In this document: positions 4,804-16,712 of the stretch, one piece after another
Layout: each line of letters starts with the position of its first letter
Position numbering within the stretch: the first letter of the stretch is position 1
Source of the DNA: Candidatus Berkelbacteria bacterium
GTDB taxonomy: Bacteria > Patescibacteriota > UBA1384 > 2-12-FULL-50-11
Assembly: GCA_016432625.1 (NCBI GenBank)
Contig: CP066697.1
Span: 215,363 to 279,362, forward strand
Reading direction: 5' to 3'
Length of the DNA stretch: 64,000 nucleotides
Notes under the pieces: model-generated
What the model saw: the letters and a program-made list of their open reading frames with translations, nothing else
Database searches by the model: none
What the model was told of the DNA's origin: nothing
Made by a program: the position numbers and the translations under genes

Positions 4804-4916
4804 CAGTGGTGATGCTCCTCATTTTTACTGCGATCGGCTTTGCCTAAGAAAAACCAATAAGTCAGGATTATTAGGATAATTCCGGCTACGATGACGATAA
4901 GTTTGTCGCTAGTCAT
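4803..4916 (-). CDS. Unannotated 37-aa single-TM peptide ending in HHH ([37 protein letters not shown]), translationally coupled between copZ and copA
   Basis: ATG at 4916 lies 4 nt inside the copZ stop, and its TGA overlaps the copA ATG (TGATG). Hydrophobic core followed by a basic/His3 tail. Below the 60-aa ORF-track cutoff. Confidence 0.45.
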
Positions 4917-5148
4917 GACTTACCTCGGCTTTGTAACCGCTCGTTTCTTCTATCGCTTTGATTACGTCTTCGACGCCCAATTTATTCTCGTCGAATACAA
5001 TTTCGGCGGACTTTTTACCTAAGTTAACCTCAACGCTGTTAATTGCGTCGTAATCCTCCTCCAAAGTTTCTAGCAGCATAACGCAGCTGGCACAGTGGAC
5101 ATCTGGTATATAGAATCTTTGTTTTGTCATCGTTGCCTCCTCATTCAA
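4909..5148 (-). CDS. copZ: Copper chaperone CopZ (HMA domain)
   Basis: HCASCV metal-binding motif in a ~70-aa ferredoxin-like HMA fold. The true start is probably M7 (MTKQRF). Confidence 0.8.
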   Translation of the reverse strand: MNEEATMTKQRFYIPDVHCASCVMLLETLEEDYDAINSVEVNLGKKSAEIVFDENKLGVEDVIKAIEETSGYKAEVSHD

Positions 5149-6298
5149 ACAATATTTGTCCGGTGTACATACCCATTGAGCAGCTGAAACGCAGCCGACC
5201 CTTATCTTGGGCGGGGATATTTATTGTCTCACGGCCAGTTTCCGGTAGAACCTTTTGGATCTTCAAGCTTGGAATTACAAAGGCCCTGCTACAACTGAAG
5301 GTGTCTTTGGTCACTAACGTCAGCCTTGTCGGTACGCCTGCTTTGGCTTTCAAGATGTTTGGCTCGTAACCATCTTCCTGAACGCTAATTGTTAACTTCT
5401 GTTCACTCTGGGCTGCGTCATTCACTTGCTCATTAGCTTTAGTTTGTTGGGCAATTTCGGTTGAGCCAATTGTATCGACCGGCGTATCGAGCCACTGTTT
5501 ATAGGCGGCATACGAGACTGGTGAGCCAACGAGATTAAGACCACTTTCAAGCGAATAGAGGCTGAAGATCAACACCAACACCGCTACTATTCTTACGAAG
5601 TATTTATTCAGGCTTTCGCCAAGACGAGTCGTGAAATAGGCAAGGATAAAGAACAGGGGAGAAGCGCCGAGCGTAAACGAGAATAGTATCAACGCTCCTG
5701 CAACGGGGCTACCCGTACCGAGCGCTAAGGCCATCATCGCCTGAGTAATACCGCACGGGATTAGTACCGTCAGAGCACCTAAAAAGATTGGTGTAGCGTA
5801 ATCTTCTTTGGCATTTTTACTAAAACGGCGGATAAAGCGGCGAATAAACTTTGGTGGTTGAATCTGGAAATAATTAAAGAACGGATGAACATTTAACAGC
5901 CGCAAGGCTGTTCCAAGCATAAAAATAGTAATAGCGAGCATTAGAACTCCGCGCATAACGGGCGTCAGTTGAAGCATTGTGCCGAGCCACCCTAAGCCAA
6001 GCCCTAATAATGTATAAGCAACAATTTTAGCGGCTAAGAATAGAACGATCGATAGAGTGATATCGCTGCGAAAACTTCTTGGCGCTCGCGGCTGTTCCTG
6101 ATGATGCTCGTAGAAGTTAATTAAGTCGTGTTTTGACATATGGGCCGGGTCAACTCGGTTCTCTTTAGGCTTATTTGGCTTAAACTCATCTTCGGCTTGT
6201 TTAGCGATCACATTAGCCAATAGCCCACCTTGAACGGCTAAACAACTAAGGCCGCCTGTAGTAAGGCCAGTCAAAAATATCACCCACAAATTTGGCAT
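5141..6298 (-). CDS. Polytopic membrane permease fused to a C-terminal cupredoxin-like domain (probable copper-handling protein)
   Basis: About 8 predicted TM helices with conserved Cys (GGLSCLA, LIPCGIT). The C-terminal ~90 aa resemble the cupredoxin_1-type fold, with two FSCS motifs and MGMY. Sits between arsR and copZ. Confidence 0.55.
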   Translation of the reverse strand: MPNLWVIFLTGLTTGGLSCLAVQGGLLANVIAKQAEDEFKPNKPKENRVDPAHMSKHDLINFYEHHQEQPRAPRSFRSDITLSIVLFLAAKIVAYTLLGLGLGWLGTMLQLTPVMRGVLMLAITIFMLGTALRLLNVHPFFNYFQIQPPKFIRRFIRRFSKNAKEDYATPIFLGALTVLIPCGITQAMMALALGTGSPVAGALILFSFTLGASPLFFILAYFTTRLGESLNKYFVRIVAVLVLIFSLYSLESGLNLVGSPVSYAAYKQWLDTPVDTIGSTEIAQQTKANEQVNDAAQSEQKLTISVQEDGYEPNILKAKAGVPTRLTLVTKDTFSCSRAFVIPSLKIQKVLPETGRETINIPAQDKGRLRFSCSMGMYTGQILFE

Positions 6299-6624
6299 TA
6301 TTTACTCACCCCTAATTCGTTCAGGAGGCTCTTGGTGAACTCGTTACTTTGCATGGTGTAGTAAACAGTTTGAGCATCCTTACTGGAACTTAGAATGTCT
6401 GCTTTCTTTAGCTTCTTTAACTGCCGGGATGCGGCTGAAATAGAAATACTGACGAGCTCTGCAATTTGGCCGACGGACAATTCCGGATAGTGTCGAAAGA
6501 GATAGCAAATCTTCATAGCCGTGGGGTCGCCAATAGTCCCGTGACGCCGCGCACACGCCTTAACGGCTTCACTGTCGGTAATCTCCCTCTTGATGTTGGC
6601 CAAGTTCTTACTGGCACGCATCAT
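6298..6624 (-). CDS. ArsR/SmtB-family metalloregulatory transcriptional repressor
   Basis: Winged HTH (LSVGQIAELVSISISAASRQLKKL) typical of ArsR/SmtB. First gene of the copper operon. Confidence 0.8.
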   Translation of the reverse strand: MMRASKNLANIKREITDSEAVKACARRHGTIGDPTAMKICYLFRHYPELSVGQIAELVSISISAASRQLKKLKKADILSSSKDAQTVYYTMQSNEFTKSLLNELGVSK

Positions 6625-6652
6625 GAATTGATTCTAATTAATGAGTAAGCAT

Positions 6653-6702
6653 GTATTTGCATGTATACGCAAATACTAACCTTGCCTGTAATTGCGTGTC
6701 AA
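6653..6702 (-). promoter_or_regulatory. Candidate arsR-copA operon promoter: -35 TTGACA (6702-6697), -10 TAGTAT (6678-6673), overlapped by the 8-8-8 inverted repeat GTATTTGC-ATGTATAC-GCAAATAC (6653-6676)
   Basis: Near-consensus sigma70-like hexamers are read on the minus strand. A perfect 8-bp inverted repeat overlapping -10/+1 fits ArsR/SmtB operator architecture. Confidence 0.4.
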
Positions 6703-6769
6703 GGAAACTACGTTACTGCCAGGAATTGACTTTGACTATGGTTCTTGATTAAATACGCCAATCGGAGGT

Positions 6770-7297
6770 GTGCGCTTGCAGCACTTTAAGAACATCGGGG
6801 CAGGACTGCTGATTTTAGCCGTCTTCTTCGCCCTTATCGTCGTCATGAAGCCGGCGGCGCGGGCAAAACGTCCGAACAACTCCTCGGGAGAGCCGGAGCT
6901 ACTCGTTCTCGACACCAAGGAAACGCCGGAGGTGAGCTACCTACCAACGGGCACGATCGAAGTTCGTTTCGACAAGCCGTTGACGATCAGTTCGGATTTC
7001 CTGGTGGGAATTGGCCAAACGAAGTCAGTTCGGGACATGGAGCTTAACAAGTCGACCGTAACGGTTCACGCCGAAGGGTCGAGTGTGAAGCTCAAGCAAA
7101 AGGGTGCCTACTTCGTTATGATCTTCACTCGCAACCTTGAAGGCAAACCCGACACCGGGACTGCTGTCCGTGTAATGATCATCATCGGCCCTTGGCCTCA
7201 CCCGGTTAACCGCAAGTTACTTCGCCCTGTTCCTGATTGGATCCGTCTCAGCAAAGCCCCACATCGGGGCTTTTCTTTTGGAGGTGGTTTGTTCTGA
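6770..7297 (+). CDS. Membrane-anchored secreted hypothetical protein (possible beta-sandwich, CopC-like; unproven)
   Basis: N-terminal TM/signal anchor; no recognisable catalytic motifs; transcribed divergently from the copper operon. Confidence 0.35.
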   Translation: MRLQHFKNIGAGLLILAVFFALIVVMKPAARAKRPNNSSGEPELLVLDTKETPEVSYLPTGTIEVRFDKPLTISSDFLVGIGQTKSVRDMELNKSTVTVHAEGSSVKLKQKGAYFVMIFTRNLEGKPDTGTAVRVMIIIGPWPHPVNRKLLRPVPDWIRLSKAPHRGFSFGGGLF

Positions 7298-7318
7298 GCT
7301 TGTCGAAGAGCGGCGAAC

Positions 7319-7882
7319 TTACTTCCAGACTAATATCGCTCTCCCTGTATAGCAGTCGTTGAACTTATCGTACGGGACTAAACCAGCTTTCCAATTCTGC
7401 TCAGCAACTTTAGAAGTGTGGTTAACGTAAAATCCTTCATCGTCGTATCCAACCACTACTGCTAAATGGCCACCGAACCTTTTCCAGAAAAGTATTTTTT
7501 CTATTAACAACTTGTTGTTCTTGAACGCCCACTTGATTGAAACGATTGGAAGCTTCTTTTCTTCAAGCGCTTTTTGCAATTCTTTAGTTGAAAGTGTTTT
7601 TCGCTCAGCGTGGAGACCCAATTTTTCAACCAGGCGAACTAAGCCCTCATGTTTCCATCCGTACTCCTCTGAGTAGCCGCCGAGTTCTTGGCCTTGTTTT
7701 ATTAGGCTCGACGTAGAATATTTTGTTTCGTTAAGAAACGAAGCAATCTCATTTACACAAAGGATCCCGCAGCACGAACGCTCCCAGTATTCCGCATCAT
7801 CTCGCGAACTAAATCCTAGCTTTTTCCATTCGTCCAAATTCCAATTTTGTGAATAAAGCGGAATTTCGTACAGAACTTTCAT
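7319..7882 (-). CDS. Stand-alone C39-like (papain-fold) cysteine peptidase domain protein
   Basis: Cys-rich SCCGILC motif and downstream GGHLAVVVGYDD, consistent with a Peptidase_C39_2-type catalytic Cys/His. Confidence 0.45.
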   Translation of the reverse strand: MKVLYEIPLYSQNWNLDEWKKLGFSSRDDAEYWERSCCGILCVNEIASFLNETKYSTSSLIKQGQELGGYSEEYGWKHEGLVRLVEKLGLHAERKTLSTKELQKALEEKKLPIVSIKWAFKNNKLLIEKILFWKRFGGHLAVVVGYDDEGFYVNHTSKVAEQNWKAGLVPYDKFNDCYTGRAILVWK

Positions 7883-7889
7883 TTTTTTG

Positions 7890-7961
7890 GGTGGCTAACG
7901 GGAATTGAACCCATATCAAGGGGACCACAACCCCACGTGTTACCATTACACCATAGCCACC
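7890..7961 (-). tRNA. tRNA-His (GTG) with encoded G-1
   Basis: Cloverleaf with acceptor GTGGCTA/TAGCCAC, G-1 pairing with discriminator C, and anticodon loop TTGTGGT. Confidence 0.85.
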
Positions 7962-7974
7962 ATGCTTTTAAGCT

Positions 7975-8005
7975 GGTGGTTATGCCCGAACGGGATATAG
8001 CCACC
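7975..8005. repeat. tRNA-His acceptor-stem-like minihelix hairpin (TGGTGGTTAT...ATAGCCACCA)
   Basis: Shares GGTGGCTAT/ATAGCCACC with the adjacent tRNA-His acceptor stem. Could be a tRNA remnant or a terminator. Confidence 0.4.
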
Positions 8006-8029
8006 ATGCTGCGTTATTATATAACGCCG

Positions 8030-8102
8030 CGCGCCCGGAGGGATTCGAACCCCCGACCCTCTGGTCCGAAGCCAGATACTCTATCCACTGAGCTACGGGC
8101 GC
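8030..8102 (-). tRNA. tRNA-Arg (TCG)
   Basis: Acceptor GCGCCCG/CGGGCGC, D-arm TAGCTCAGTGGATAGAG, anticodon loop CTTCGGA. Confidence 0.85.
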
Positions 8103-8161
8103 AAATCAACGAGCACAAACAAATGTACAGCGGCCGGAGCTAAGTGGAACGACACTCGGAG

Positions 8162-8182
8162 TATCCACTGAGCTACGGGCGC
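8162..8182. repeat. 21-bp exact duplicate of the tRNA-Arg(TCG) 5' end (TATCCACTGAGCTACGGGCGC), 80 bp from the gene
   Basis: Identical to 8082-8102; partial tRNA copy. Confidence 0.6.
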
Positions 8183-8282
8183 TTGTCGTCCAATTTTCCC
8201 ATAAATTGCCCTACTAATCTAGGAGATTAGGCCAAGTATCTAGATTTCGACTGCGAGCGATTGCGAGAAGTGAATTTCGTTT

Positions 8283-8705
8283 TTAGAATTCAATTTTTTG
8301 TTTTTTCCAGCCGAATAGCGGCTCGTAGATGATGTCGATGAATTTCGGTGAAAGTTTGTACCATTTGTGATTATCATCAATGTGATCGTCAGGTAAGTGG
8401 TATTTTGCTAGATAATTCTTAGCTAGTTGTTCGTCTTGATTGACTACCGTGACTGTCCCGGCAATCTGTAAGCCAGCTGCTTTGTGATCGGGCGTATCAA
8501 CCATGATTGCCGCTGCCGCTTGCGGCGCTAGGTCAACGGCCCTCGAGTGTCGTACTACCGGCATTGAGAGCCAATAGATATTCATCGCCTCGTCATGAAT
8601 GTAAATGAGCGGGCTGACCCAAACGCCACCGTCGTCGTTTGTGCCGAGATGGATCAAGCGGCCTTGTTCTAATAATTGCTGAGCTAGCTTCTTTAAATCT
8701 TCCAT
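8283..8705 (-). CDS. Pyridoxamine 5'-phosphate oxidase-like FMN-binding split-barrel protein
   Basis: Size (140 aa) and sequence pattern typical of the PNPOx-like family; weak call. Confidence 0.5.
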   Translation of the reverse strand: MEDLKKLAQQLLEQGRLIHLGTNDDGGVWVSPLIYIHDEAMNIYWLSMPVVRHSRAVDLAPQAAAAIMVDTPDHKAAGLQIAGTVTVVNQDEQLAKNYLAKYHLPDDHIDDNHKWYKLSPKFIDIIYEPLFGWKKQKIEF

Positions 8706-8766
8706 AGATTCAATAATACTCCCACGCCTGGAGGGCGGGAAGTATCCAGAGTAGAATTACGTCGTT

Positions 8767-8843
8767 GCCCTCGTAGCTCAGTGGATTAGAGCGTTGGTTT
8801 CCGGTACCAAAGGCCACAGGTTCAAGTCCTGTCGAGGGCGCCA
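8767..8843 (+). tRNA. tRNA-Arg (CCG), CCA encoded
   Basis: Acceptor GCCCTCG/CGAGGGC, anticodon loop TTCCGGT, 3' GCCA. Confidence 0.85.
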
Positions 8844-8880
8844 GTAGGGGGCGATACCACTTTAATTTTTCGCACAGCTA

Positions 8881-9582
8881 CTAGTGATTATGGTGTGGGC
8901 AGAATTTAGCGTGATCGCCGATCGCTTCGTTAGTTAGTTTACCGTCCTCGATTGTTACTACCCTGGTGGCGATATCCCGAAGGCGTTGGTCGTGGCTGAC
9001 GATCACGACCGACTTATGTTCCTGACAGGCTATTTCACACAGTAATAACATAACTGAATGGCCATTTTTCGAGTCGAGGTTAGCGGTCGGCTCATCGGCA
9101 AGAATGATTGGCGGATTGTTTATTAGCGATCGAGCGACGGCGACTCGTTGGCGTTCGCCACCCGAGAGTTCTTTAGGCTTGGCGTGAAGACGATTTTGCA
9201 AGCCCAGCCTGTTCAATAACTCTAAGGCGCGCTTGGTGTTGCGGTTTTTGCCAAACCCGGCAATGACGACGTTTTCAAAGGCGGTTAGATTGTCGAGTAA
9301 GTTAAAAGACTGAAAAATAAAGCCGATCTTTCCTCTGCGCAACATCGTCAGTTGTCCTTGGCTTAACTTTGAGATTGGTTGATCGGCAATAAATATCTCA
9401 CCGGCTGAGGGACTAAGTAGCCCGCCCAACATCGTCAGCAGCGTTGTCTTACCGCTGCCTGACGGCCCGATAATCAAGACAATTTCACCCGGTTCGATAC
9501 TAATACTAACGCTCTCGACGGCTTTCACCTCGGTGTGTTGCCGGGGATTAAACGTTTTAGATAATTCGGTGGCTTTGATCAT
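8881..9582 (-). CDS. ABC transporter ATP-binding protein (MacB/LolD-type)
   Basis: Walker A GPSGSGKTT, Q-loop, ABC signature LSGGERQRVAVAR, Walker B ILADEPT. Confidence 0.85.
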   Translation of the reverse strand: MIKATELSKTFNPRQHTEVKAVESVSISIEPGEIVLIIGPSGSGKTTLLTMLGGLLSPSAGEIFIADQPISKLSQGQLTMLRRGKIGFIFQSFNLLDNLTAFENVVIAGFGKNRNTKRALELLNRLGLQNRLHAKPKELSGGERQRVAVARSLINNPPIILADEPTANLDSKNGHSVMLLLCEIACQEHKSVVIVSHDQRLRDIATRVVTIEDGKLTNEAIGDHAKFCPHHNH

Positions 9583-9584
9583 CG

Positions 9585-10682
9585 TTAGGCTTTAAAGACT
9601 GAGGCGGGGTTAATCACCAGTAACCGCTTCAGTGGCATAAACGAGGCGATAATAGCCATCCCGACCACGGCGGCAAATACTAAAATGACCTGTCCGCCAC
9701 TAACTTCGTACAAAAATCCGCTAGCAATATTAGTGGCGGCGATCGCAAAAAGTGGCGCTAGTATCGCTCCCACAACAAAACCAATCGCTCCGGCTGTAAC
9801 TGATTGAATCAGTCCGATGCCGTATATTTGGGCGCCAGTGTAGCCGAGGGCTTTTAGGACCCCATACTCCCGACTTTTCTCGATGGTAGCGGTAAAGATA
9901 GTTAAGCCGATGACTGCTATGCCAATTAGAACAGCGATAATTAGCAGAACCTTAATGATGGGTAGGAATGTTTCAGTGAGAATAGATTTGTTGTTTTCCA
10001 GAAACTCAGTCTTCGTCATAACTTTGTAGTCGGGAAATTGCTTGGCGATATCAATCGTGGCCTGGTCGGGATCGGGTGTCTGTACGAGGTAGTAATTTAC
10101 TAGCCCATCTAGATCAAGGATGTTTTTAACGTCCGCCCGGTTAACCAGAGCGAAGGTGTAGGCGAGAATGTTACCGCCGCTAATAATCCCCGATACTTTG
10201 ACTGTGGTTTTGGCCACTTCAAAAGTGTCACCGATTTTAAGTCCGGTTTGACGGGCTAATACTTGATCGATAGCGATCTCGCCTAGTGCCGGGTCGTCTG
10301 TGCCTTCGACAAGCTCGTAACTCTTTATGAAGCGATCCTCGTCAACACCAACAACGAAAATATGAACGTCTTGGCCGTCAATTGTTGTCCCAACCTGGCG
10401 GCCGACAAATGTTGATACCCGAGTAACAGACCCTAGCTTAGAAACGTCTTCCGATCGGACCGCTTGGATAATTGAGATGCTATGGCTGAGATCACCACTG
10501 CCGGCCTGACCGACCCAGAGGTCGGCGGGGATATTGCCCGTGAACCTTGTCATTTGTTTTTCCCAACCGCTATATAACCCGAGTAGTATCAAGATCAGAA
10601 TCACCGAGAAGGTGACGCCACCTATAGTGATCAACAGCCGGCCTCTTTCGCCGAAAAGGTTCCTTAGCGCGATGAGAAACAT
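9585..10682 (-). CDS. ABC transporter permease, FtsX/MacB family
   Basis: N-terminal TM, large periplasmic MacB-like domain and C-terminal FtsX 3-TM bundle; 4-nt gap to the ATPase gene. Confidence 0.8.
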   Translation of the reverse strand: MFLIALRNLFGERGRLLITIGGVTFSVILILILLGLYSGWEKQMTRFTGNIPADLWVGQAGSGDLSHSISIIQAVRSEDVSKLGSVTRVSTFVGRQVGTTIDGQDVHIFVVGVDEDRFIKSYELVEGTDDPALGEIAIDQVLARQTGLKIGDTFEVAKTTVKVSGIISGGNILAYTFALVNRADVKNILDLDGLVNYYLVQTPDPDQATIDIAKQFPDYKVMTKTEFLENNKSILTETFLPIIKVLLIIAVLIGIAVIGLTIFTATIEKSREYGVLKALGYTGAQIYGIGLIQSVTAGAIGFVVGAILAPLFAIAATNIASGFLYEVSGGQVILVFAAVVGMAIIASFMPLKRLLVINPASVFKA

Positions 10683-10710
10683 ATGTTTACAGTAGTCCCC
10701 GAATAGTTAT

Positions 10711-10739
10711 TTGACAATCCCCCCAGGGGGGACTAGACT
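10711..10739 (+). promoter_or_regulatory. Promoter with embedded CsoR-like box: TTGACA - ATCCCCCCAGGGGGGAC (17 nt) - TAGACT
   Basis: Consensus -35 hexamer. The 17-nt spacer is a perfect C6-A-G6 inverted repeat. Oriented toward the DsbD-like gene at 10872. Confidence 0.45.
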
Positions 10740-10871
10740 CGGGTTGATGGAAATTTGCGACTGCCCAACAGTTTCGCAGGTTAGGACATACAGAGTCCTT
10801 GTTGGGCTGGCTATAATAGGATCCCTTCTGTCGTACCTCGGTAGTCAGGTCGCCGTATTATTGCTGGCGCA

Positions 10872-11747
10872 ATGACCCTGACTTTGTTTATCTTTTCGCT
10901 AACGAGTGCGTTTCTAAGTGGCTTATTGGCATTATTTGCCCCTTGCTGTATCACGTTTCTATTACCTTCCTACTTTGCTTCCGTTTTCCAGAGAAAGAGC
11001 AATATCATCTTTATGACCTTAATATTTTTCTTAGGGTTAACGACAATCCTTCTGCCGATTAGCCTAGGTGCAGCTTGGCTTTCTGGTCTATTCACTGGTT
11101 ATCACACTGCCATTTTTATCGTAGGTGGGTTACTTTTGATCGCCTATGGAATAATGTCCTTCTTCGGTAAGACGGTAATGATTCCACTTCATTACACTCC
11201 AGATTTGAAGCGATCCAGAGGTGTTTTCGGAACGTATCTTCTGGGTATATTCTCGGGCATAGCCAGCTCCTGCTGCGCGCCAGTTTTGGCTGGTTTGCTT
11301 ACCCTGTCGGCCTTATCGGCCACGCTACCGGTCGCTACACTAATCGGCCTCACTTACGTCTTAGGAATGACATTGCCGTTATTTATCCTGTCGCTCGTTT
11401 GGGATGCGAAAAAGATTGGGCAATCGAAATTTTTCAGGGGACGTCCAATCCGCTTCCAGCTTGGCGGTTGGCGGCATGTTGTTCATTCAACCCACCTATT
11501 GGTTAGCATTCTTTTTATCGCTATTGGCGGCTTCATTCTCTACAGCGCAGCAAACGGCGAATCGGCGGTTGCTGCGCCCTGGCAGATAAGACTTAATGCT
11601 AACTTCCAGGGGGCAATTCAAGACTTTGCCAACTTTGCCGCACGTTACCCGCTCCTTAGCTTGACGGCCTTTATATTGCTTATTACCGGCTGGGTGTTGT
11701 TAGTGCGAAAAGCCACAACGGCGTCAAAGGAGAAAAATGAAGCATAG
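10872..11747 (+). CDS. DsbD/CcdA-family thiol-disulfide transporter-like membrane protein (Cys doublets APCC and SSCC)
   Basis: Polytopic TM protein with Cys in TM1 and a mid-protein TM, as in CcdA/DsbD beta-domain proteins; overlaps the downstream TlpA-like gene. Confidence 0.5.
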   Translation: MTLTLFIFSLTSAFLSGLLALFAPCCITFLLPSYFASVFQRKSNIIFMTLIFFLGLTTILLPISLGAAWLSGLFTGYHTAIFIVGGLLLIAYGIMSFFGKTVMIPLHYTPDLKRSRGVFGTYLLGIFSGIASSCCAPVLAGLLTLSALSATLPVATLIGLTYVLGMTLPLFILSLVWDAKKIGQSKFFRGRPIRFQLGGWRHVVHSTHLLVSILFIAIGGFILYSAANGESAVAAPWQIRLNANFQGAIQDFANFAARYPLLSLTAFILLITGWVLLVRKATTASKEKNEA

Positions 11748-12330
11748 CGGAAAGAGTAGCGATCTCTTGTTTACTATTGGTGTAATCGTGGCGGTGGGCA
11801 TCGTCTTGACGGGGATCGTTATCTTTTCTAACGGCAGACCTTCTACCCCCCTTGCGAAGACTGGTTCGCTTAAGATAGGCGATTCGGCTCCAAGCTTTGA
11901 ACTTGCTTCGGCAACGGGTGGAAAGGTCACCTTGAATCAGTATGACGGCAAACCGGTGCTGTTGTACTTTAACGAAGGTGTTGGATGCCAGCCGTGCTGG
12001 AAACAGATTATCGACCTTGAAAACAATGAGAGCTTTAGCTCCCTCAAGATTCCAATGGTGGCAATTGCACCTAACGACCCGAGCGATTGGAGTCCGGTAG
12101 TCTCAAATAACCCTATGCAAACGCCGATCTTGGCCGACATTGAGAATGCCGTTTCAAAGTCCTATGGCATGTTGACCATGAAGTCGTCTATGCACAAGGG
12201 CGTCAACCCAGGCCACACCTTTATCCTGCTTGATGCAGAGCATAAGGTAACCTGGATCGGCGACTACCCGGGAATGAACATGACCGCTTCTGAAATAGTA
12301 ACTGTCATTAAGGACAAGATACGAGGTTGA
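11737..12330 (+). CDS. Membrane-anchored TlpA/ResA-like thioredoxin-fold oxidoreductase (CxxC = CQPC)
   Basis: N-terminal TM anchor, then redoxin domain with VGCQPCWKQ active site. Confidence 0.7.
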   Translation: MKHSGKSSDLLFTIGVIVAVGIVLTGIVIFSNGRPSTPLAKTGSLKIGDSAPSFELASATGGKVTLNQYDGKPVLLYFNEGVGCQPCWKQIIDLENNESFSSLKIPMVAIAPNDPSDWSPVVSNNPMQTPILADIENAVSKSYGMLTMKSSMHKGVNPGHTFILLDAEHKVTWIGDYPGMNMTASEIVTVIKDKIRG

Positions 12331-12404
12331 CGGTTTGGGGGCGACGGCTAATTTTAGTCAATGAATTAGTGTGACTCTGTTTAGGAGGAGGTAGCGCACT
12401 TCCA

Positions 12405-13577
12405 CTACGGGTAAATATATGTTGGAGTGCCGTAAAGCAACGCGTTAACATTGCGCCTTTCGCCATATCCACGTGGTACTAGCCAGTTGTATTCCGAAAC
12501 GTTAATTGTTCCGTCGCTATTAACTTTCTCTACCCAGGCTGTATGGCCGTAAGGGCGGTTCTCGCCAATTGGCCAGGAAACCACTGCCCCAACCCTGGGC
12601 GTTGAAGATGTTTTATAACCTTGGTCACGAGCGAGCGCTGGCCAGTTCCAACCACTGCCGGACCCAGGTCGCGTGTTCATAAACGGCTGACCGTAGGTAA
12701 CAAGCCACTTCCAGGCAGTATATGAAACGCATTGCCTTTTAATGAATAGCCACGGGTCAGCCGCCGCAGGGTTTGGTTCATCCGCGTACGGATAGGCGCT
12801 CGTCGCGCCCTGATTTATATTTTCCGAACCAGCCTGTCGTCGCCGAGCTTCATAAATGGACTGGCTTAGCGTTTCGTGTTCAGTGGCTAATTTTTTCAAT
12901 GAGTCTTCGTAGCGGTCTTGCTGCTCTTGGTTCAGGTTCAGCAGCAAACTTTGCTGTTGTTGCTGACTCGCTAATACGGCTTTATCATTTGATAATAGGC
13001 TCTCGACTTCTTCCAGCTGTTGTTGAAGAGCTACCTGCGAAGCTTTTTTGGCTAGTAGTTCCTGTTTAAGAGCACTTAACTTTTGTCCATCCTGCATTAA
13101 TTGCTGCTGTATAGATTCTAGATAGTTTATGCGCGTCGTGTATTCACCTATGCTTTCAGACGTCAACATAATCACTTTCGAGGTCGTCAGGGTCTCGTAA
13201 AGTAATATGTAAAGACGCCGAGTAGAGCCGTCGAGTTTGGCAATATCTTTCTCGGTTTTCTCGACCTCTCCGTCGATCCTTTCTATCTCTAATTTGGCAA
13301 TATTAAGTGTTCTCCTAGTCGTATCGAGTCGTCCTTGAGTGGAGGCGATGTCCTGCGTGAGCGCGTTTAGCGTCTGCTGCAACGTAAGTTCGACCTTCCG
13401 GCTCTGGTTAAGCCTTTGTTGGTTCTGCTGCTGTTGTTTCTCTACTTCTCTTTGTCGTTTCAAGAGCTCGTTTAATGAAACAGCTTGGGCAGATAGTGGA
13501 GCAGATAGTAAGGTGATTACTAACGCCAGAAAACCAACCGACTTAACAAATATTCGCTTCCCCCTCCTTGGAGGCAT
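12405..13577 (-). CDS. Secreted coiled-coil protein with C-terminal CHAP peptidoglycan-hydrolase domain (PcsB-like architecture)
   Basis: Signal peptide; ~230 aa of Q/E/L-rich heptads; C-terminal CHAP with catalytic Cys (CVSYTAWKW) and His (YGHTAWVE). Confidence 0.7.
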   Translation of the reverse strand: MPPRRGKRIFVKSVGFLALVITLLSAPLSAQAVSLNELLKRQREVEKQQQQNQQRLNQSRKVELTLQQTLNALTQDIASTQGRLDTTRRTLNIAKLEIERIDGEVEKTEKDIAKLDGSTRRLYILLYETLTTSKVIMLTSESIGEYTTRINYLESIQQQLMQDGQKLSALKQELLAKKASQVALQQQLEEVESLLSNDKAVLASQQQQQSLLLNLNQEQQDRYEDSLKKLATEHETLSQSIYEARRRQAGSENINQGATSAYPYADEPNPAAADPWLFIKRQCVSYTAWKWLVTYGQPFMNTRPGSGSGWNWPALARDQGYKTSSTPRVGAVVSWPIGENRPYGHTAWVEKVNSDGTINVSEYNWLVPRGYGERRNVNALLYGTPTYIYP

Positions 13578-13837
13578 TAGTTTTGAGAAAGGTGGTAGAG
13601 GTGTGATAGCTCATTAATAGCCTTGCTGTCCTCACCACTGACAAACTGATCTTTCACGCAGGTAGCCAGATGTTTCTTAAGCAACTCCTGGTTCAAGCTT
13701 TTAAGACTCTTCTGGATCGCTAGGCTTTGTGTCATAAGTTCGATGCAGTACCGGTCTTCCGCTACCATCTTCTGCAGTTTCAGGATATGCCCCTGAATAA
13801 TTTTTATTCGATGTCTAATTCGTTCGTCTTGTGTCAT
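13577..13837 (-). CDS. csoR: CsoR-family Cu(I)-sensing transcriptional repressor (Cys-His-Cys site)
   Basis: DUF156 helical-bundle family. The ligand pattern RYC ... H-x3-C (HLATC) matches Cu-sensing CsoR rather than RcnR. Start taken at M13 (MTQDER); the stop overlaps the CHAP gene ATG. Confidence 0.75.
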   Translation of the reverse strand: MTQDERIRHRIKIIQGHILKLQKMVAEDRYCIELMTQSLAIQKSLKSLNQELLKKHLATCVKDQFVSGEDSKAINELSHLYHLSQN

Positions 13838-13841
13838 GAGT

Positions 13842-13872
13842 ATATTTATAATCCCCCTATAGGGGATAGTCA
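13842..13872 (-). promoter_or_regulatory. csoR promoter with CsoR-like box: TTGACT (13872-13867) - ATCCCCTATAGGGGGAT (13867..13851; plus strand ATCCCCCTATAGGGGAT) - TATAAAT, ATG 6 nt later (near-leaderless)
   Basis: C-tract/G-tract pseudopalindrome forming the 17-nt spacer; same architecture as the 10711 promoter. Confidence 0.5.
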
Positions 13873-13919
13873 ATTCCTTTTTGTTGTGAGACTATGAGTT
13901 CAATAAGAAAGGGGCTTAG

Positions 13920-14060
13920 ATGATGGGAATGAACGCGGATATGATGAGCGGCGGGCTGGGGGGCGGCATGATGGTATTTGGGTGGCTTCTTTACCTACTG
14001 TTCGTTGTGGCTCTTGTTTTGTCGGCAATTGCGCTAGGCAAGTACATCGGCAAGAATTAG
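13920..14060 (+). CDS. Unannotated 46-aa Met/Gly-rich membrane peptide (MMGMNADMMSGGLGGGMMVFGWLLYLLFVVALVLSAIALGKYIGKN)
   Basis: RBS AAGAAAGGGG 6 nt upstream of ATG. N-terminal MxxM/MM motifs followed by one TM helix. Divergent from csoR, 53 nt from the CsoR-like box. Confidence 0.4.
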   Translation: MMGMNADMMSGGLGGGMMVFGWLLYLLFVVALVLSAIALGKYIGKN

Positions 14061-14122
14061 GGCAGCAAGGGGCCGTGGTTTCCCGGTAGGGGCAAGAGAG
14101 CCTCGCGTGTTAAAGTGAGTAT

Positions 14123-14671
14123 ATGCATCATCGGTGGAGATATCCGAACATCACCCTACTATTTATCAGCTTGGCCGTGACGGTTTTTCTGCTCAATAAC
14201 GGCTGGTTGGGGCATCTGAAAGATGGTTTTGAATCTATAGGCTATCTCGGCGTTTTTGTTGCTGGGTTCTTATTTGTCTCTACATTCACAATCGCGCCAG
14301 CGGCCGCTATTCTCTTTGAATTTGCGCAAAACCTCGAGCCAATATTCGTGGCTCTTATTGGTGGCGTTGGCGCGGCGATAGGCGATTACCTCGCCTACAG
14401 ATTCATTAGAGACCGACTGTTTGCCGAGCTTAACCCTCTTCTCAAAGCCCTTCATTTATATCGGCGGATCGACATCCTTCATACGAAGTATTTTGCTTGG
14501 TTGGCGCCGGTAATCGGCGCAGCGATAGTCGCCTCACCGTTACCTGACGAGATTGGTCTTAGCTTGCTTGGTTTGAAAAAGATCGCTTTCAGCCGCTTTA
14601 TCGCCTTGGCCTTCCTGCTCAACGCTTTAGGGATATATGTCATTGCGATTGCTGCTAATTCAGCCCCCTGA
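14123..14671 (+). CDS. Polytopic membrane protein, unknown function
   Basis: Four to five predicted TM helices; no confident family assignment. Confidence 0.35.
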   Translation: MHHRWRYPNITLLFISLAVTVFLLNNGWLGHLKDGFESIGYLGVFVAGFLFVSTFTIAPAAAILFEFAQNLEPIFVALIGGVGAAIGDYLAYRFIRDRLFAELNPLLKALHLYRRIDILHTKYFAWLAPVIGAAIVASPLPDEIGLSLLGLKKIAFSRFIALAFLLNALGIYVIAIAANSAP

Positions 14672-14692
14672 ACTTCGTGGTAGGATGTAACC

Positions 14693-15169
14693 ATGAAAAT
14701 ACTTGGGCAGGTCATTGTTGTCTTGTTGGTTGTCGGGGGAATAGTTATTTACAGCAATCGCTCTGGTGATAGCGGAGCTTCTCCAGGTCCGCAAACACAG
14801 TCCGAATCTTCGACGGCAGATCCGTCGCTCGGCGGGTCAACTGACCCTTCTGTAGCTAAAACTCCCGGCGCGTACGTCGATTACTCGGACTCGGTCATCG
14901 CAAGCACCAGTGGAACCAAGATACTTTTCTTTCATGCTCCTTGGTGTCCGCAATGCCGGACACTAGACGCTGATATTAGAAAGAGTAACGTTCCGGCGGG
15001 AGTGACAATAATTAAAACGGACTACGATACTAACCAGGCGCTTCGGCAAAAATACGGCGTGACGATCCAAACGACCTTAGTTAGGGTTGACGACGCCGGT
15101 AACCTGGTCAAGAAATATGTCGCTTACGATGAACCCACCTTTGCCGCCGTCAGTAGTAACCTGCTTTAG
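14693..15169 (+). CDS. Membrane-anchored thioredoxin-family protein (WCPQC)
   Basis: N-terminal TM, Ser/Thr/Pro linker, thioredoxin fold with the canonical WCPQC motif. Confidence 0.7.
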   Translation: MKILGQVIVVLLVVGGIVIYSNRSGDSGASPGPQTQSESSTADPSLGGSTDPSVAKTPGAYVDYSDSVIASTSGTKILFFHAPWCPQCRTLDADIRKSNVPAGVTIIKTDYDTNQALRQKYGVTIQTTLVRVDDAGNLVKKYVAYDEPTFAAVSSNLL

Positions 15170-15171
15170 AA

Positions 15172-15894
15172 ATGGTGTTACTTTATGCCTCGTTTGTCGC
15201 TGGTTTCCTTACCGTCTTGGCGCCGTGCATCTTGCCGGTTTTGCCGGTGGTTTTAGCCGGATCGGTAACAGAAAGCCGACGCACGAAACGTATTGTAACG
15301 ATTATTTTTGGCTTGACGATTTCAGTTGTTGTTTTCTCGTTACTCTTGAAAGCGACAACTAGCCTGCTCGGAATTCCACAAATTGTTTGGCAGCTAATTT
15401 CTGGCGGGATACTAATTCTCTTCGGAGTGGTCAGTCTCTATCCAGGGCTTTGGGAAAAAGTCTCGGCACCGCTCGGCGCTAAGGCGGGTGAGTCGTTGCA
15501 GACCAGTAGAACCAAATCTGGTCTTTGGGGGGATTTATTCCTTGGAGCAGCGCTGGGGCCGGTCTTCAACAGCTGTAGCCCGACATACGCCTTAATAGTC
15601 GCGGCGATTTTGCCTGTTTCGTTCGGGCGTGGACTTACTTATTTGGTATCTTACGCGATCGGTCTGGCCGTGGCGCTACTTTTAATCGCCTTCCTTGGCC
15701 GGGCACTAGTTAGCAAACTTGGCTGGGCTGCCAACCCAACAGGCTGGTTTCATAAAGTAATTGGCGTGTTACTAATAGTGATTGGGCTGGCTGTCATCTT
15801 TGGCGCCGACAAGAAGTTTCAAACCTATGTGCTTGATCGGGGCTACTATCAACCGATAATAAACTTAGAAGAACAACTTCGTTTACCGAAGTAA
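15172..15894 (+). CDS. ccdA: Cytochrome c-type biogenesis / thiol-disulfide transporter CcdA
   Basis: Six TM helices with conserved Cys in TM1 (APCILP) and TM4 (NSCSP); starts 3 nt after the thioredoxin gene. Confidence 0.75.
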   Translation: MVLLYASFVAGFLTVLAPCILPVLPVVLAGSVTESRRTKRIVTIIFGLTISVVVFSLLLKATTSLLGIPQIVWQLISGGILILFGVVSLYPGLWEKVSAPLGAKAGESLQTSRTKSGLWGDLFLGAALGPVFNSCSPTYALIVAAILPVSFGRGLTYLVSYAIGLAVALLLIAFLGRALVSKLGWAANPTGWFHKVIGVLLIVIGLAVIFGADKKFQTYVLDRGYYQPIINLEEQLRLPK

Positions 15895-16058
15895 TTCATT
15901 CTCTAAACTACCCCATCAAGCTTGGTCGTCTGAACGCTTACCTCAGTTATTTAAGATAACTATGTGTGCCCGAAATAAAGCACACTTAGGGCGATACTTG
16001 AAAAGTTAGTAGATCTAACGCACTCTGGGGCTACGGTTTTGTACCGAAGGAGGCTCAC

Positions 16059-16712
16059 GTGTATGTGAATCAAAGCGAGCGACGCATCATGATGCTTTGC
16101 GAGCAGCATGACATCATTTCGCGTGGCCACTTCAAGATTAAGGGGTTCCACAGCGACATTTTCATTGATCTTGAACGAGCGTTGTCACTTGCGCCCGTTC
16201 GCGACGAGTTCTGCGAAGCGATCACCCAAAACTGCTTGGATCGCAGCACCGACAACAGCGGTAGGCACGATACCAGTATCGATATCGTCATTGGTATCGG
16301 CAGGCGTGGGCTGACTATCGCCGATGCTGTCGCCAACCAGCTTAGGGCGTTGACGCATCGCCAGGTAATATCGCTTGAGGCGATAAAAGAAGACGGGATG
16401 GTTGCGTTGCCGATTAGCGGACGACGACTGATTCGTGGTCGGAACGTGTTGACAGTGATGGATATCGTCCGAACGGGGAGCACTGCTGCGAAGGCGGCCG
16501 ATTTGATTACGTCGAACGGTGGCAATAACTGTGGTTTGTCAGCCTTTTTCCGCCGAGGGGAATTGGCGGATTACGACGGCCACGGACGGCGGCCGTTCGT
16601 CATTTGCAACCCGAGCTTCGAGCTCTGGACGACCGCATGTCCCAAGTGTCAACAAGGAATTCCTTTGGACCCAATACCTAGATCTCGTGAGCAACTTGCT
16701 CTCGAGTTCTGA
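16059..16712 (+). CDS. Phosphoribosyltransferase-domain protein (orotate PRTase-like)
   Basis: PRPP-binding motif VLTVMDIVRTGSTA; GTG start 5 nt after SD AAGGAGG. Confidence 0.55.
   Translation: MYVNQSERRIMMLCEQHDIISRGHFKIKGFHSDIFIDLERALSLAPVRDEFCEAITQNCLDRSTDNSGRHDTSIDIVIGIGRRGLTIADAVANQLRALTHRQVISLEAIKEDGMVALPISGRRLIRGRNVLTVMDIVRTGSTAAKAADLITSNGGNNCGLSAFFRRGELADYDGHGRRPFVICNPSFELWTTACPKCQQGIPLDPIPRSREQLALEF

Follow-up and report, generated by a model that had tools for sequence, protein, structure and literature searches.

The segment at positions 10711-10739 of the window (i.e., the whole 64-kb stretch of DNA that was analyzed) is a real and probably functional CsoR operator-promoter. We interpret it as a sigma-70-type promoter gated by a repressor, in which the 17-bp spacer between a consensus -35 and a TAnnnT -10 would be the operator of the neighboring CsoR, and we give this reading a probability of roughly 75%. 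In this genome of an uncultured member of the Berkelbacteria (CPR), the near-consensus promoter seems to drive expression of a small peptide of the membrane together with an electron-transfer pair (CcdA and a CxxC redoxin), so that copper sensing would be wired to the repair of surface thiols and not to a copper pump. The features of the locus, with coordinates, strand and, where applicable, the basis of the assignment in brackets, are as follows.

8881..10682, minus strand: MacB/FtsX-type ABC permease (9585-10682) and ATPase (8881-9582) (conserved neighbors of ccdA-tlpA).
10689..10717, minus strand: divergent leaderless promoter, TTGTCA (10717-10712), 17 nt, TACTGT (10694-10689), 6 nt, permease ATG at 10682.
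10711..10716, plus strand: -35 hexamer TTGACA (sequence reading and promoter scan).
10717..10733, no strand: predicted CsoR-type operator ATCCCCCCAGGGGGGAC, filling the 17-nt spacer (palindrome and comparison with other genomes).
10734..10739, plus strand: -10 hexamer TAGACT (sequence reading and promoter scan).
10747..10875, plus strand: leaderless small ORF (sORF) of 42 aa, MEICDCPTVSQVRTYRVLVGLAIIGSLLSYLGSQVAVLLLAQ, with a predicted C-terminal TM helix (composite pattern and L084 homologue).
10872..11747, plus strand: CcdA-type thiol-disulfide electron transporter of the membrane (CC pairs C25/C26 and C134/C135 conserved).
11737..12330, plus strand: membrane-anchored extracytoplasmic CxxC redoxin (GCQPC) of AhpC-TSA/Redoxin fold, ResA/TlpA-like (overlaps ccdA by 11 nt).
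12405..13577, minus strand: CHAP-domain gene (catalytic-Cys cell-wall hydrolase type), second cistron of the csoR transcript.
13577..13837, minus strand: csoR, 86 aa, PF02583, with C31/H56/C60, Y30 and E76 (profile match and alignment).
13845..13873, minus strand: csoR promoter-operator, TTGACT (13873-13868), ATCCCCTATAGGGGGAT (13867-13851), TATAAA (13850-13845), 7 nt, ATG at 13837.

The anatomy of the site can be read directly from the DNA. TTGACA, a palindromic 17-nt spacer and TAGACT had been claimed for 10711-10739, and all three were read back exactly. The core palindrome TCCCCCC-A-GGGGGGA (10718-10732) consists of two perfect 7-nt arms, TCCCCCC (10718-10724) and GGGGGGA (10726-10732), that stand 1 nt apart. 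In a promoter scan of positions 4500-16500 this promoter took the joint top rank, matching 10 of the 12 hexamer positions at a spacing of 17 nt, and the complement of its TTGACA doubles as the -35 TTGTCA (10717-10712) of the divergent promoter.

The motif scan for boxes covered 64 kb of a contig of roughly 769 kb. Within this window, the pattern ATCCCC-N5-GGGGAT with up to two mismatches gave six matches against 1.34 expected, a number reached by none of 100 shuffles. At zero or one mismatch only 10717 and 13851 were recovered, so that a spread of the box to many unrelated places is not seen in the window. Generic C4..G4 palindromes were without enrichment in the window (seven nested matches vs 5.4 +/- 3.1 in shuffles), and a relaxed search for C6AG6 with three mismatches was not significant there. 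Two C4..G4 palindromes were rejected as candidates, one (48552) lying within a coding region and the other (7257) resembling a terminator. Additionally, a composite pattern of a -35, 16-18 nt, a -10, 5-9 nt, a start codon and an ORF occurred five times as compared to 0.17 in shuffles, and three of its four distinct places fall at the two boxes.

The promoter had been described as oriented toward the gene at 10872. The ccdA gene is indeed in the operon, but there is no untranslated leader of 125 nt; instead, the ATG at 10747 opens the sORF. This ATG lies 7 nt after the -10 hexamer, and the stop codon of the sORF overlaps the ccdA start (ATGA). A homologue in L084 has the same geometry, with codon-position differences of 19/11/29, and the frame is the only one open in both genomes. 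The support for the sORF comes from only two genomes (the window and L084), and a two-sequence profile search for further homologues returned only the L084 protein, without a Pfam match. The leaderless sORF is a candidate micro-protein missed by current annotation. A search of 10300-14300 for known RNA elements, covering the region 10740-10872 and the csoR intergenic region, gave no Rfam match at E <= 1. A perfect TATAAT at 10812-10817 was set aside as an internal promoter because it falls within the sORF, lacks a usable -35 and has no counterpart in L084.

The DsbD/CcdA-like character proposed for the gene at 10872, which has no Shine-Dalgarno sequence of its own, was borne out at the level of the family. 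Its product alone scored below the Pfam cut-off for DsbD_TM (17.5 vs 27.1 bits). A 22-sequence CcdA family profile matched Thermus CcdA (5VKV) with E = 1.3e-12 over about 175 residues; the PCC and SCC motifs of the family align with both catalytic Cys of 5VKV, and the family shows the DsbD_TM fold with a single catalytic Cys per pseudo-symmetric half. The downstream protein, previously called TlpA-like, is a membrane-anchored CxxC redoxin with a ResA/TlpA-like fold (PF00578 at 6.7e-20, PF08534 at 7.9e-14), in which a hydrophobic N-terminus is visible in the translation and GCQPC aligns with the CEPC of ResA. The label needs qualification, however, as the scores are below the curated cut-offs of both ResA (38 vs 170 bits) and Bcp (48 vs 140), and the best PDB match is a peroxiredoxin-like protein; we place it in the family at large and in no particular subtype.

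A csoR gene was found 3 kb away behind a comparable box, as proposed, and its product matched PF02583 (Trns_repr_metal) at 72.7 bits (cut-off 22.8, E = 3.4e-20). The Cu(I) triad is present: C31, H56 and C60 align with the x-C-H-C ligands C36/H61/C65 of M. tuberculosis CsoR (2HH7), and likewise with those of 4M1P and 4ADZ, while Y30 and E76 align with the second-shell allosteric pair Y35/E81 of 2HH7 (residue numbering derived from the printed alignment). The top PDB matches were all Cu-CsoRs, and the closest NCBIfam model was RicR at 52 bits, far under its cut-off of 175. The RLXR DNA-contact motif of helix alpha1 (R54-R57 in S. lividans) is not retained; the window CsoR reads R10-I-K-I13, with the first Arg kept and the second lost. 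Elsewhere, alpha1 reads RLKT in M. tuberculosis and RLKI, RLQI or RMNY in related CPR CsoRs. A covariation of the alpha1 motif with the operator dyad was considered and yielded no clean rule: RIKI, RLQI and RLKI pair with TCC/GGA, yet TAC/GTA occurs in L027 (RLKI), L041 (RLNI) and L082 (RMNY).

The two boxes had been called near-identical, which overstated their likeness. They are similar, agreeing at 13 of 17 positions with common ATCCCC and GGGGA ends. Box 2 (13851-13867) matches ATCCCC-N5-GGGGAT without mismatches and lies upstream of the regulator's own gene, as in autoregulation. The CHAP gene overlaps csoR translationally via TAATG. No convincing plus-strand promoter for the gene array starting at 13920 was seen at box 2, where a perfect TATAAT (13847-13852) has no -35.

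The consensus of type-2 CsoR operators, which are pseudopalindromes built on G tracts, is ATACCC-N5-GGGTAT, with 2-4 bases between the tracts; two CsoR tetramers occupy such a site, and Cu(I)-CsoR does not bind (PMC3902906). The description of the box as CsoR-type held for the frame of this consensus but not for the dyad, in which TCC/GGA replaces TAC/GTA. The 17-bp frame, ATCCCC-N5-GGGGA(T/C) here, is shared with the operators of S. lividans csoR/copZA, B. subtilis copZA, L. monocytogenes and S. aureus (PMC3902906), as are the AT at the outer ends, the placement on the promoter of csoR plus a stress operon, and a repressor with C-H-C ligands plus the Tyr/Glu pair. Box 1 has the inverted tracts, C6 and G6, with the flanks AT and AC, inside the -35/-10 spacer. 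In contrast to the type-2 dyad 5'-TAC-X9-GTA-3', box 1 reads TCC-X9-GGA, and with the central base of each dyad half changed in this way the tracts become C6/G6. A single base (A) separates the tracts of box 1, unlike in type-2 operators, whereas box 2 has four (TATA), within the 2-4 definition. The operator here also differs in exactly filling the 17-nt spacer of a leaderless promoter, in its target (ccdA-tlpA, not copZA) and in the alpha1 motif of its repressor (RIKI vs RLXR). TACCC-N5-GGGTA with up to one mismatch has no site in the window, and the canonical TAC/GTA dyad is present in other CPR loci (L027, L041, L058, L060 and L082). Judged from these letters, the box is a variant type-2 CsoR operator with a TCC/GGA dyad. 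Any base swap in the TAC/GTA dyad abolished detectable binding by S. lividans CsoR (PMC3902906); the altered dyad, the single base between the tracts of box 1 and the RIKI motif of alpha1 all speak against the CsoR reading. The variant also serves as a natural test of the TAC/GTA "anchor" rule of CsoR-DNA recognition.

The conservation of the box and its association with csoR were observed in other genomes. The original prediction would have been refuted by absence of the box upstream of orthologous genes; the box, a canonical CsoR box or membership in a csoR/copA operon was found at 10 of 13 orthologous ccdA-tlpA loci. In L084 (78% identity) the arrangement is TTGACA-ATCCCCCCTGGGGGGAT-TAGGGT-7 nt-ATG, followed by the sORF and ccdA. 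L002 (73%) has TTGACA-GTCCCCCCGGTGGGGAT upstream of ccdA, and its csoR has TTGACA-CTCCTCCAAGGGGGGAT-TATAAC-7 nt-ATG. At the L084 and L002 promoters the box is kept despite diverged flanks. In L082, L088 and L211 a canonical TACCCC..GGGG(G)TA box overlaps the -35 of a leaderless ccdA, divergent from csoR(-copA); in L081, L086 and L087, ccdA-tlpA is joined to the end of (csoR-)copA operons; and in L001 a CsoR paralogue is the first gene of the ccdA operon. No recognizable box was seen in L085, L089 and L210 among these 13 loci. Other CPR lineages carry continuous csoR-copA-...-ccdA-tlpA arrays, and across 80 loci of the ccdA family copA was found within 6 kb in 29 and csoR in 14.

A promoter-operator scan of metagenomes also linked the pattern to csoR, which lies directly downstream in six of seven unique TTGACA-ATCCCC..GGGGAT-TA promoters as opposed to 1 of 33 other pattern matches. 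The dominant metagenome match, an unrelated T-box promoter of a gut bacterium with TCCCC-N5-GGGGA in the spacer, was rejected. When JGI metagenome contigs were scanned using the window CsoR as a single protein, 221 pattern matches came up, none of which was confirmed.

These observations support the CsoR interpretation of the box to the extent that sequence comparison can test it. A CsoR-family operator could respond not to copper but to persulfide, thiol-oxidative or other stress in the manner of CstR or TTHA1953, with direct induction of thiol repair. The regulated genes encode thiol-disulfide proteins in place of a copper pump, an ArsR-type regulator has charge of copA in this window, and both Cys needed for persulfide sensing are present in the window CsoR. 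CsoR-family proteins with non-metal roles also exist and can control thioredoxin genes (e.g., TTHA1953, which controls Sox genes including a thioredoxin; PMC10318464). We nevertheless consider a signal other than copper unlikely, given that the full Cu(I) C-H-C set and the Tyr/Glu allosteric pair are conserved, that the CsoRs with the same ATCCCC..GGGGAT promoter in L102/103, L111 and L151 head csoR-copA operons, that orthologous ccdA-tlpA pairs are embedded in csoR-copA operons, and that known systems link copper and envelope thiol repair.

The palindrome might also serve chiefly the divergent MacB-type ABC transporter, its place in the ccdA promoter being secondary. The leaderless promoter of the permease shares its -35 region with the box promoter and is kept in L084 as TTGTCA-16-TAGAGT-6-ATG, and the ABC pair adjoins ccdA-tlpA in five genomes. 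Against this, the box lies upstream of the ABC -35 (about -37 to -53), a weaker position for repression than a spacer; the ABC genes of L002 and L081 are not downstream of any box, whereas ccdA still is or belongs to a csoR operon; and no ABC gene stands beside the box in L082, L088 and L211. Control chiefly of the transporter is thus very improbable, while the ABC pair is possibly co-repressed by the box. We would give even less credence to a MerR/CueR-type activator site that remodels the spacer, or to a G/C palindrome that arose by chance or for structural reasons and serves no regulatory protein. MerR-family copper sensors likewise bind dyads between the -35 and the -10, and both the missing enrichment of generic C4..G4 palindromes in the window and the gut T-box promoter noted above would fit a fortuitous palindrome. 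Promoters of the MerR type, however, require spacers lengthened to 19-20 nt, and the spacer here has 17 nt, which is the optimum. The same box, moreover, fronts csoR here and in at least six other sequence types, persists at orthologous promoters whose flanks have diverged, and belongs to a pattern that is significantly enriched in the window.

For CsoR as a copper-responsive repressor at this promoter, we infer the following course of CsoR binding, copper signal, transcription start, translational coupling and substrates. Without copper, apo-CsoR would occupy the C-tract/G-tract pseudopalindrome and keep RNA polymerase off both hexamers, possibly as two tetramers, one per DNA face, by analogy with S. 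lividans. The bound protein would probably also block the back-to-back ABC-permease promoter, with which the -35 region is shared, and through the second box CsoR would repress its own leaderless csoR-CHAP transcript. Rising cytoplasmic Cu(I) would bind C31/H56/C60, the Y30-H56-E76 network would lower DNA affinity, and CsoR would leave. Transcription would then begin at or beside the A of the ATG at 10747 and give a leaderless mRNA, on which ribosomes that have translated the 42-aa peptide would start again at the ccdA ATG overlapped by its stop codon (ATGA), with tlpA next through its 11-nt overlap. Reducing equivalents would cross the membrane through CcdA and reach the anchored CxxC redoxin, which would in turn reduce surface-protein cysteines that are copper-oxidized or mis-paired; one candidate client is the CHAP hydrolase, which is co-regulated and has a catalytic Cys.

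Copper-induced envelope reductases of the DsbD/TlpA type confer copper resistance in Salmonella (Scs; PMC10907172; bioRxiv 10.64898/2026.05.22.727170) and in P. aeruginosa (dsbDEG; bioRxiv 10.1101/2020.08.17.255257), and copper also induces a tlpA gene in C. glutamicum (PMC3140484). As in ScsABCD (ScsB/ScsD) and DsbRS-dsbDEG, the locus encodes a DsbD-family membrane transporter alongside a TlpA/DsbE-like CxxC reductase of membrane-anchored or periplasmic type, and the pair would likewise be under copper-responsive control and protect envelope thiols. A putative membrane protein carrying a CX2C motif is the product of the first Scs gene, scsA, which loosely recalls the sORF. Induction of the Scs and Dsb systems is by two-component activators that sense the envelope (CpxRA, DsbRS), whereas here the proposed control is by a one-component repressor in the cytoplasm; the transporter is a minimal CcdA without the extra domains of ScsB, no gene for a ScsC/DsbG-like partner was seen in the operon, and the host is a CPR bacterium. 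To our knowledge, CPR bacteria are generally without an outer membrane and c-type cytochromes. We treat the locus as a functional analogue of Scs and not as a member, the two being likened by description. Since thiol reduction serves copper resistance via two-component systems in Salmonella and Pseudomonas and would do so via CsoR here, the same answer to copper damage of the cell surface would have arisen convergently in different bacteria.

Gram-positive CcdA-ResA and CcdA-Etrx systems resemble the locus in that overlapping neighbor genes pair a minimal CcdA with a thioredoxin-fold CxxC protein tethered to the membrane. They differ in that the partner here falls between ResA-like and Prx-like groups, below the ResA and Bcp cut-offs, in the predicted CsoR regulation, and in the context, which is a copper island and not cytochrome c maturation or Msr genes. 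With M. tuberculosis CsoR/RicR the proposal shares an autoregulating Cu(I) repressor that also reaches genes other than pumps via related palindromes; the targets themselves differ, and the M. tuberculosis CsoR operator has the inverse GTA/TAC orientation (PMC3902906), unlike the boxes described here.

A tentative joint reading, which we hold at clearly less than even odds, is that in this Berkelbacteria lineage CsoR has been rewired from the pump (now ArsR-type) to a regulon for the rescue of surface thiols. This regulon would comprise the 42-aa peptide, for ribosome loading on, or work with, CcdA and the redoxin; the CHAP hydrolase; and possibly the MacB-type exporter, under a TCC/GGA operator that canonical CsoRs would not bind. 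On the main reading of the locus, the CsoR regulon would reach beyond copper efflux to the reduction of thiols outside the cytoplasm. Hardly any CPR/Patescibacteria have been cultured, and their gene regulation is largely unexplored; in the literature searched, no paper linking CsoR with CPR bacteria was found. The circuit is compact (one 86-aa repressor and two 17-bp operators) and could be reconstituted in vitro or heterologously.

The copA gene of the window lies 9 kb from csoR in an ArsR-led operon, with a different operator/palindrome at the arsR promoter. A CsoR site controlling copA was considered and rejected, as the space between copZ and copA is taken up by a 37-aa ORF whose stop and start codons overlap. 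The placement of copA in an ArsR-led operon is unusual for a copper CsoR.

The promoter at 10711-10739 reads exactly as had been claimed from the sequence, with TTGACA, a palindromic 17-nt spacer and TAGACT. The arms of the palindrome, TCCCCCC and GGGGGGA, are perfect complements with one base between them, and the promoter scan gave a score of 10/12 with a 17-nt spacer, the joint best in 12 kb. The reading of this palindrome (box 1, 10717-10733) as a CsoR operator was supported, with corrections, by its anatomy, its conservation and its association with csoR, and the sequence supports an operator-promoter in which the dyad is altered, the output leaderless, the first cistron small and the target operon unusual. 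The elements at box 1 and at a second box (box 2) are as follows.

10711-10739, plus strand: box 1 promoter, TTGACA, 17-nt spacer ATCCCCCCAGGGGGGAC, TAGACT
10717-10682, minus strand: ABC permease promoter from the strict scan described below, TTGTCA (10717-10712), TACTGT (10694-10689), ATG at 10682
13577-13837, minus strand: csoR, 86 aa, CsoR/RcnR family (PF02583, E = 3e-20)
13873-13845, minus strand: csoR promoter, TTGACT (13873-13868), ATCCCCTATAGGGGGAT (13867-13851, box 2), TATAAA (13850-13845), then 7 nt and the ATG
12405-13577, minus strand: CHAP-domain gene with a long coiled-coil N-terminal part, its start overlapping the csoR stop as TAATG

In the window, neither a loose C6AG6 motif with 3 mismatches (11 matches, 9.1 expected) nor C4..G4 palindromes of any kind (7 matches, 5.4 expected) were significantly enriched. 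The form ATCCCC-N5-GGGGAT with at most 2 mismatches gave 6 matches against 1.34 expected, a count reached in 0 of 100 shuffles. The box is not scattered over unrelated sites in this stretch, as matches with 0-1 mismatch occur only at 10717 and 13851, and the others lie in coding or terminator-like contexts. The original prediction had also placed a csoR gene 3 kb away behind a near-identical box; the gene and the type of box were confirmed, with the same promoter architecture as at box 1, but the two boxes match at only 13 of 17 positions.

Among solved structures, the window CsoR best matches copper CsoRs, namely those of Geobacillus, M. tuberculosis and S. lividans. Residues C31/H56/C60 align with the M. 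tuberculosis Cu(I) ligands C36/H61/C65, and Y30/E76 with the allosteric pair Y35/E81. RicR is the nearest NCBIfam model, with a score below its cut-off, and the alpha1 'RLXR' motif reads RIKI. Membership of the CsoR family alone is no proof of copper sensing, since the family member TTHA1953 controls sulfur-oxidation genes, including a thioredoxin (PMC10318464).

In known type-2 CsoR operators, AT-rich inverted repeats flank a pair of G/C tracts on the outside (Tan et al., PMC3902906). The Streptomyces consensus is ATATACCCCTNAGGGGTATAT, with a conserved ATACCC-N5-GGGTAT core; a TAC-X9-GTA dyad is common to species, and base swaps in it abolish detectable binding. Such a site is bound by two tetramers but not by Cu(I)-CsoR (PMC3902906). 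Both boxes of the window retain that 17-bp frame, as ATCCCC-N5-GGGGA[T/C], but carry TCC/GGA where known sites have TAC/GTA, and in box 1 the tracts are a single base apart. No canonical TAC/GTA-type site occurs anywhere in the window. Simple covariation of the alpha1 motif with the dyad type was also considered, and none was found among the CsoRs compared.

Metagenome contigs scanned for TTGACW-N-TCCCC-N5-GGGGA-N-TA yielded at least 120 stretches and at least 40 unique promoters. Among the matches listed, six of the seven unique ATCCCC...GGGGAT spacers had csoR directly downstream, usually followed by copA, and three of these six were leaderless, with 6-7 nt from the -10 to the ATG. The remaining unique matches listed had csoR downstream in 1 of 33 cases, at a locus with a separate canonical box; this difference links the variant box specifically to CsoR genes. 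One gut-bacterial promoter, TTGACT-TTCCCCTTGCAGGGGAG-TATACT, accounted for 73 of the at least 120 stretches listed (L099, 3888-5169, and about 72 other loci amongst L091-L209) and is a very common human-gut metagenome sequence. It was rejected as a CsoR site, having no CsoR context and driving a T-box leader (RF00230, 109 bits) that precedes a bile-acid/Na+ symporter-like transporter. The closest metagenomic CsoR among the matches listed (L188, 119-899; 74% identical) is encoded by a leaderless gene with a ATCCCCCGTCGGGGGAT box; downstream of it on that strand comes a 160-aa membrane-anchored protein containing a CDC motif.

Conservation was assessed at twelve further loci with a ccdA at least 55% identical, leaving out L083 as a duplicate of L082, and the orthologous ccdA-tlpA genes carried a box or csoR/copA operon linkage at nine of them. 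The spacer-box design of the window recurs at L084 and L002. In the latter, TTGACA-GTCCCCCCGGTGGGGAT stands directly ahead of ccdA, and csoR lies just downstream, behind TTGACA-CTCCTCCAAGGGGGGAT-TATAAC-7 nt-ATG. In a sister clade (L082, L088 and L211), two back-to-back -35 hexamers flank a canonical TACCC..GGGGGTA palindrome; a leaderless ccdA lies to one side and csoR(-copA) to the other, an arrangement in which one operator would gate csoR-copA plus ccdA-tlpA. The box merges with the divergent hexamers at 5800-5840, 2470-2515 and 635-680, respectively, and at L082 they form a perfect 13-nt inverted repeat, TGTCAATACCCCC / GGGGGTATTGACA. At L081, L086 and L087, (csoR-...-)copA operons have ccdA-tlpA fused on at their 3' end. 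At L001, which has the nearest ccdA orthologue in the collection of genome contigs (83%), the ccdA operon begins with the gene of a divergent CsoR paralogue (5600-6005; 38% identical, C-H-C retained). This gene lies behind a different weak palindrome, TACCTATACCTAGGGTGGAGGTA, and a 27-aa ORF separates it from ccdA. No recognisable box was found at L085, at L089 (ccdA divergent from copA) or in the 96 nt upstream covered at L210. Across 80 loci of this ccdA family, copA lies within 6 kb at 29 and csoR at 14. Several CPR lineages have uninterrupted same-strand csoR-...-copA-...-ccdA-tlpA arrays, in whose csoR promoters the box again occupies a TTGACA-N17 spacer.

The expected 125-nt leader ahead of ccdA (10872) gave way to a 42-codon ORF, opened by an ATG at 10747 and closed by a stop that overlaps the ccdA start as ATGA. 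This ATG lies 7 nt past the -10 of the box 1 promoter, the same distance as at csoR. A strict pattern (-35, 16-18 nt, -10, 5-9 nt, start codon, ORF) matched five times in the window (0.17 in shuffles), and three of the four distinct places were at the two boxes, namely the small ORF, csoR and the minus-strand ABC permease gene; from this spacing, transcripts at the boxes are predicted to be leaderless. L084, a 78% ccdA orthologue, has TTGACA-ATCCCCCCTGGGGGGAT-TAGGGT-7 nt-ATG and then a 41-aa gene abutting ccdA. The two peptides are 39% identical and both contain a TM-grade hydrophobic stretch, their frame is the only one open in both loci, and their codon-position differences (19/11/29) are ordered as in ccdA (75/30/192). 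The CxC motif of the window peptide is not conserved in the L084 peptide, and a protein database search found no further homologues. Altogether, the comparison suggests that the small ORF is probably a real gene. A small CxC theme may recur between its MEICDC start and the L188 CDC protein.

ABC genes of the MacB/FtsX type, for a permease and an ATPase (8881-10682 in the window), neighbour ccdA-tlpA in five genomes, with varying orientation, including at L001, L002, L081 and L084. In the window and L084 the leaderless ABC promoter is back-to-back with the box promoter, and the divergent permease promoter, which has its -35 region in common with the box 1 promoter, may be co-repressed.

The window belongs to a Candidatus Berkelbacteria (CPR/Patescibacteria) metagenome-assembled genome, and its CcdA-like protein is 100% identical to the NCBI entry with locus tag HZB70_01660. 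The profile of this protein's family matches Thermus CcdA, and the two catalytic Cys positions align, which identifies it by sequence as a genuine CcdA. The tlpA gene, overlapping ccdA by 11 nt, encodes a redoxin of the AhpC-TSA/Redoxin fold that is anchored in the membrane and carries a CxxC motif (GCQPC); it resembles ResA and Prx proteins, with scores below both curated cut-offs.

What is established is the sequence anatomy, its conservation and its association with csoR; we infer the rest. Apo-CsoR on the spacer would exclude RNA polymerase, and Cu(I) at C31/H56/C60 would release it. The 42-aa peptide would then be translated from a leaderless mRNA starting at 10747, and ribosomes would re-initiate at the overlapping start of ccdA, which lacks its own Shine-Dalgarno sequence; tlpA comes next, across the 11-nt overlap. 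CcdA would hand electrons to the anchored redoxin, which would repair copper-oxidised surface thiols. The same CsoR would control its own transcript, extending into the CHAP-domain gene, whose start at the TAATG overlap makes it the second cistron. This enzyme is a plausible candidate client of the reductase, given the exposed catalytic cysteine that CHAP hydrolases need and the single ccdA-tlpA-CHAP array at L085.

Copper-induced envelope reductases of the DsbD/TlpA type are known in Salmonella (ScsABCD, in which ScsD is a membrane-bound reductase and ScsB its redox partner, under CpxRA; PMC10907172; bioRxiv 10.64898/2026.05.22.727170), P. aeruginosa (dsbDEG, under DsbRS; bioRxiv 10.1101/2020.08.17.255257) and C. 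glutamicum (tlpA, cg3289, under CopRS; PMC3140484). All three are under two-component control, whereas the window has a CsoR-type box. A literature search found no paper on CsoR control of a CcdA/TlpA pair or on CsoR in CPR bacteria. The circuit belongs to a phylum in which regulation has hardly been studied, and it is small enough for a direct in vitro test.

A second redox module (13920-15894, plus strand) is encoded divergently from csoR and box 2; no convincing plus-strand promoter was found for it.

13920-14060, plus strand: TM ORF, 46 aa
14123-14671, plus strand: membrane protein with no family match
14693-15169, plus strand: Trx-like WCPQC protein
15172-15894, plus strand: DsbD_2 protein

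In the window copA is not behind a CsoR box but closes a minus-strand operon of tightly overlapping genes (2572-6702).

6298-6624, minus strand: arsR
5141-6298, minus strand: DsbD_2-cupredoxin fusion
4909-5148, minus strand: HMA copZ
4803-4916, minus strand: 37-aa TM ORF ending in HHH
2572-4803, minus strand: copA

The L002 copA arrangement is the same and, with copA outside the CsoR box in both, CsoR in this lineage seems to regulate thiol repair at the envelope instead of efflux. Downstream of the operon promoter, TTGACA(6702)-18-TAGTAT, comes a perfect inverted repeat, GTATTTGC-N8-GCAAATAC (6653-6676), that differs from the CsoR boxes and is likely an ArsR/SmtB operator. Between the arsR -10 and ATG (6625-6680, minus strand) lies a 13-codon ORF, MQIHAYSLIRINS, ending in a TGA that overlaps the ATGATG start of arsR. 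At L002 the arsR ATG is 6 nt after the -10, and the metal regulons of this lineage seem typically to start leaderless or behind a mini-ORF.
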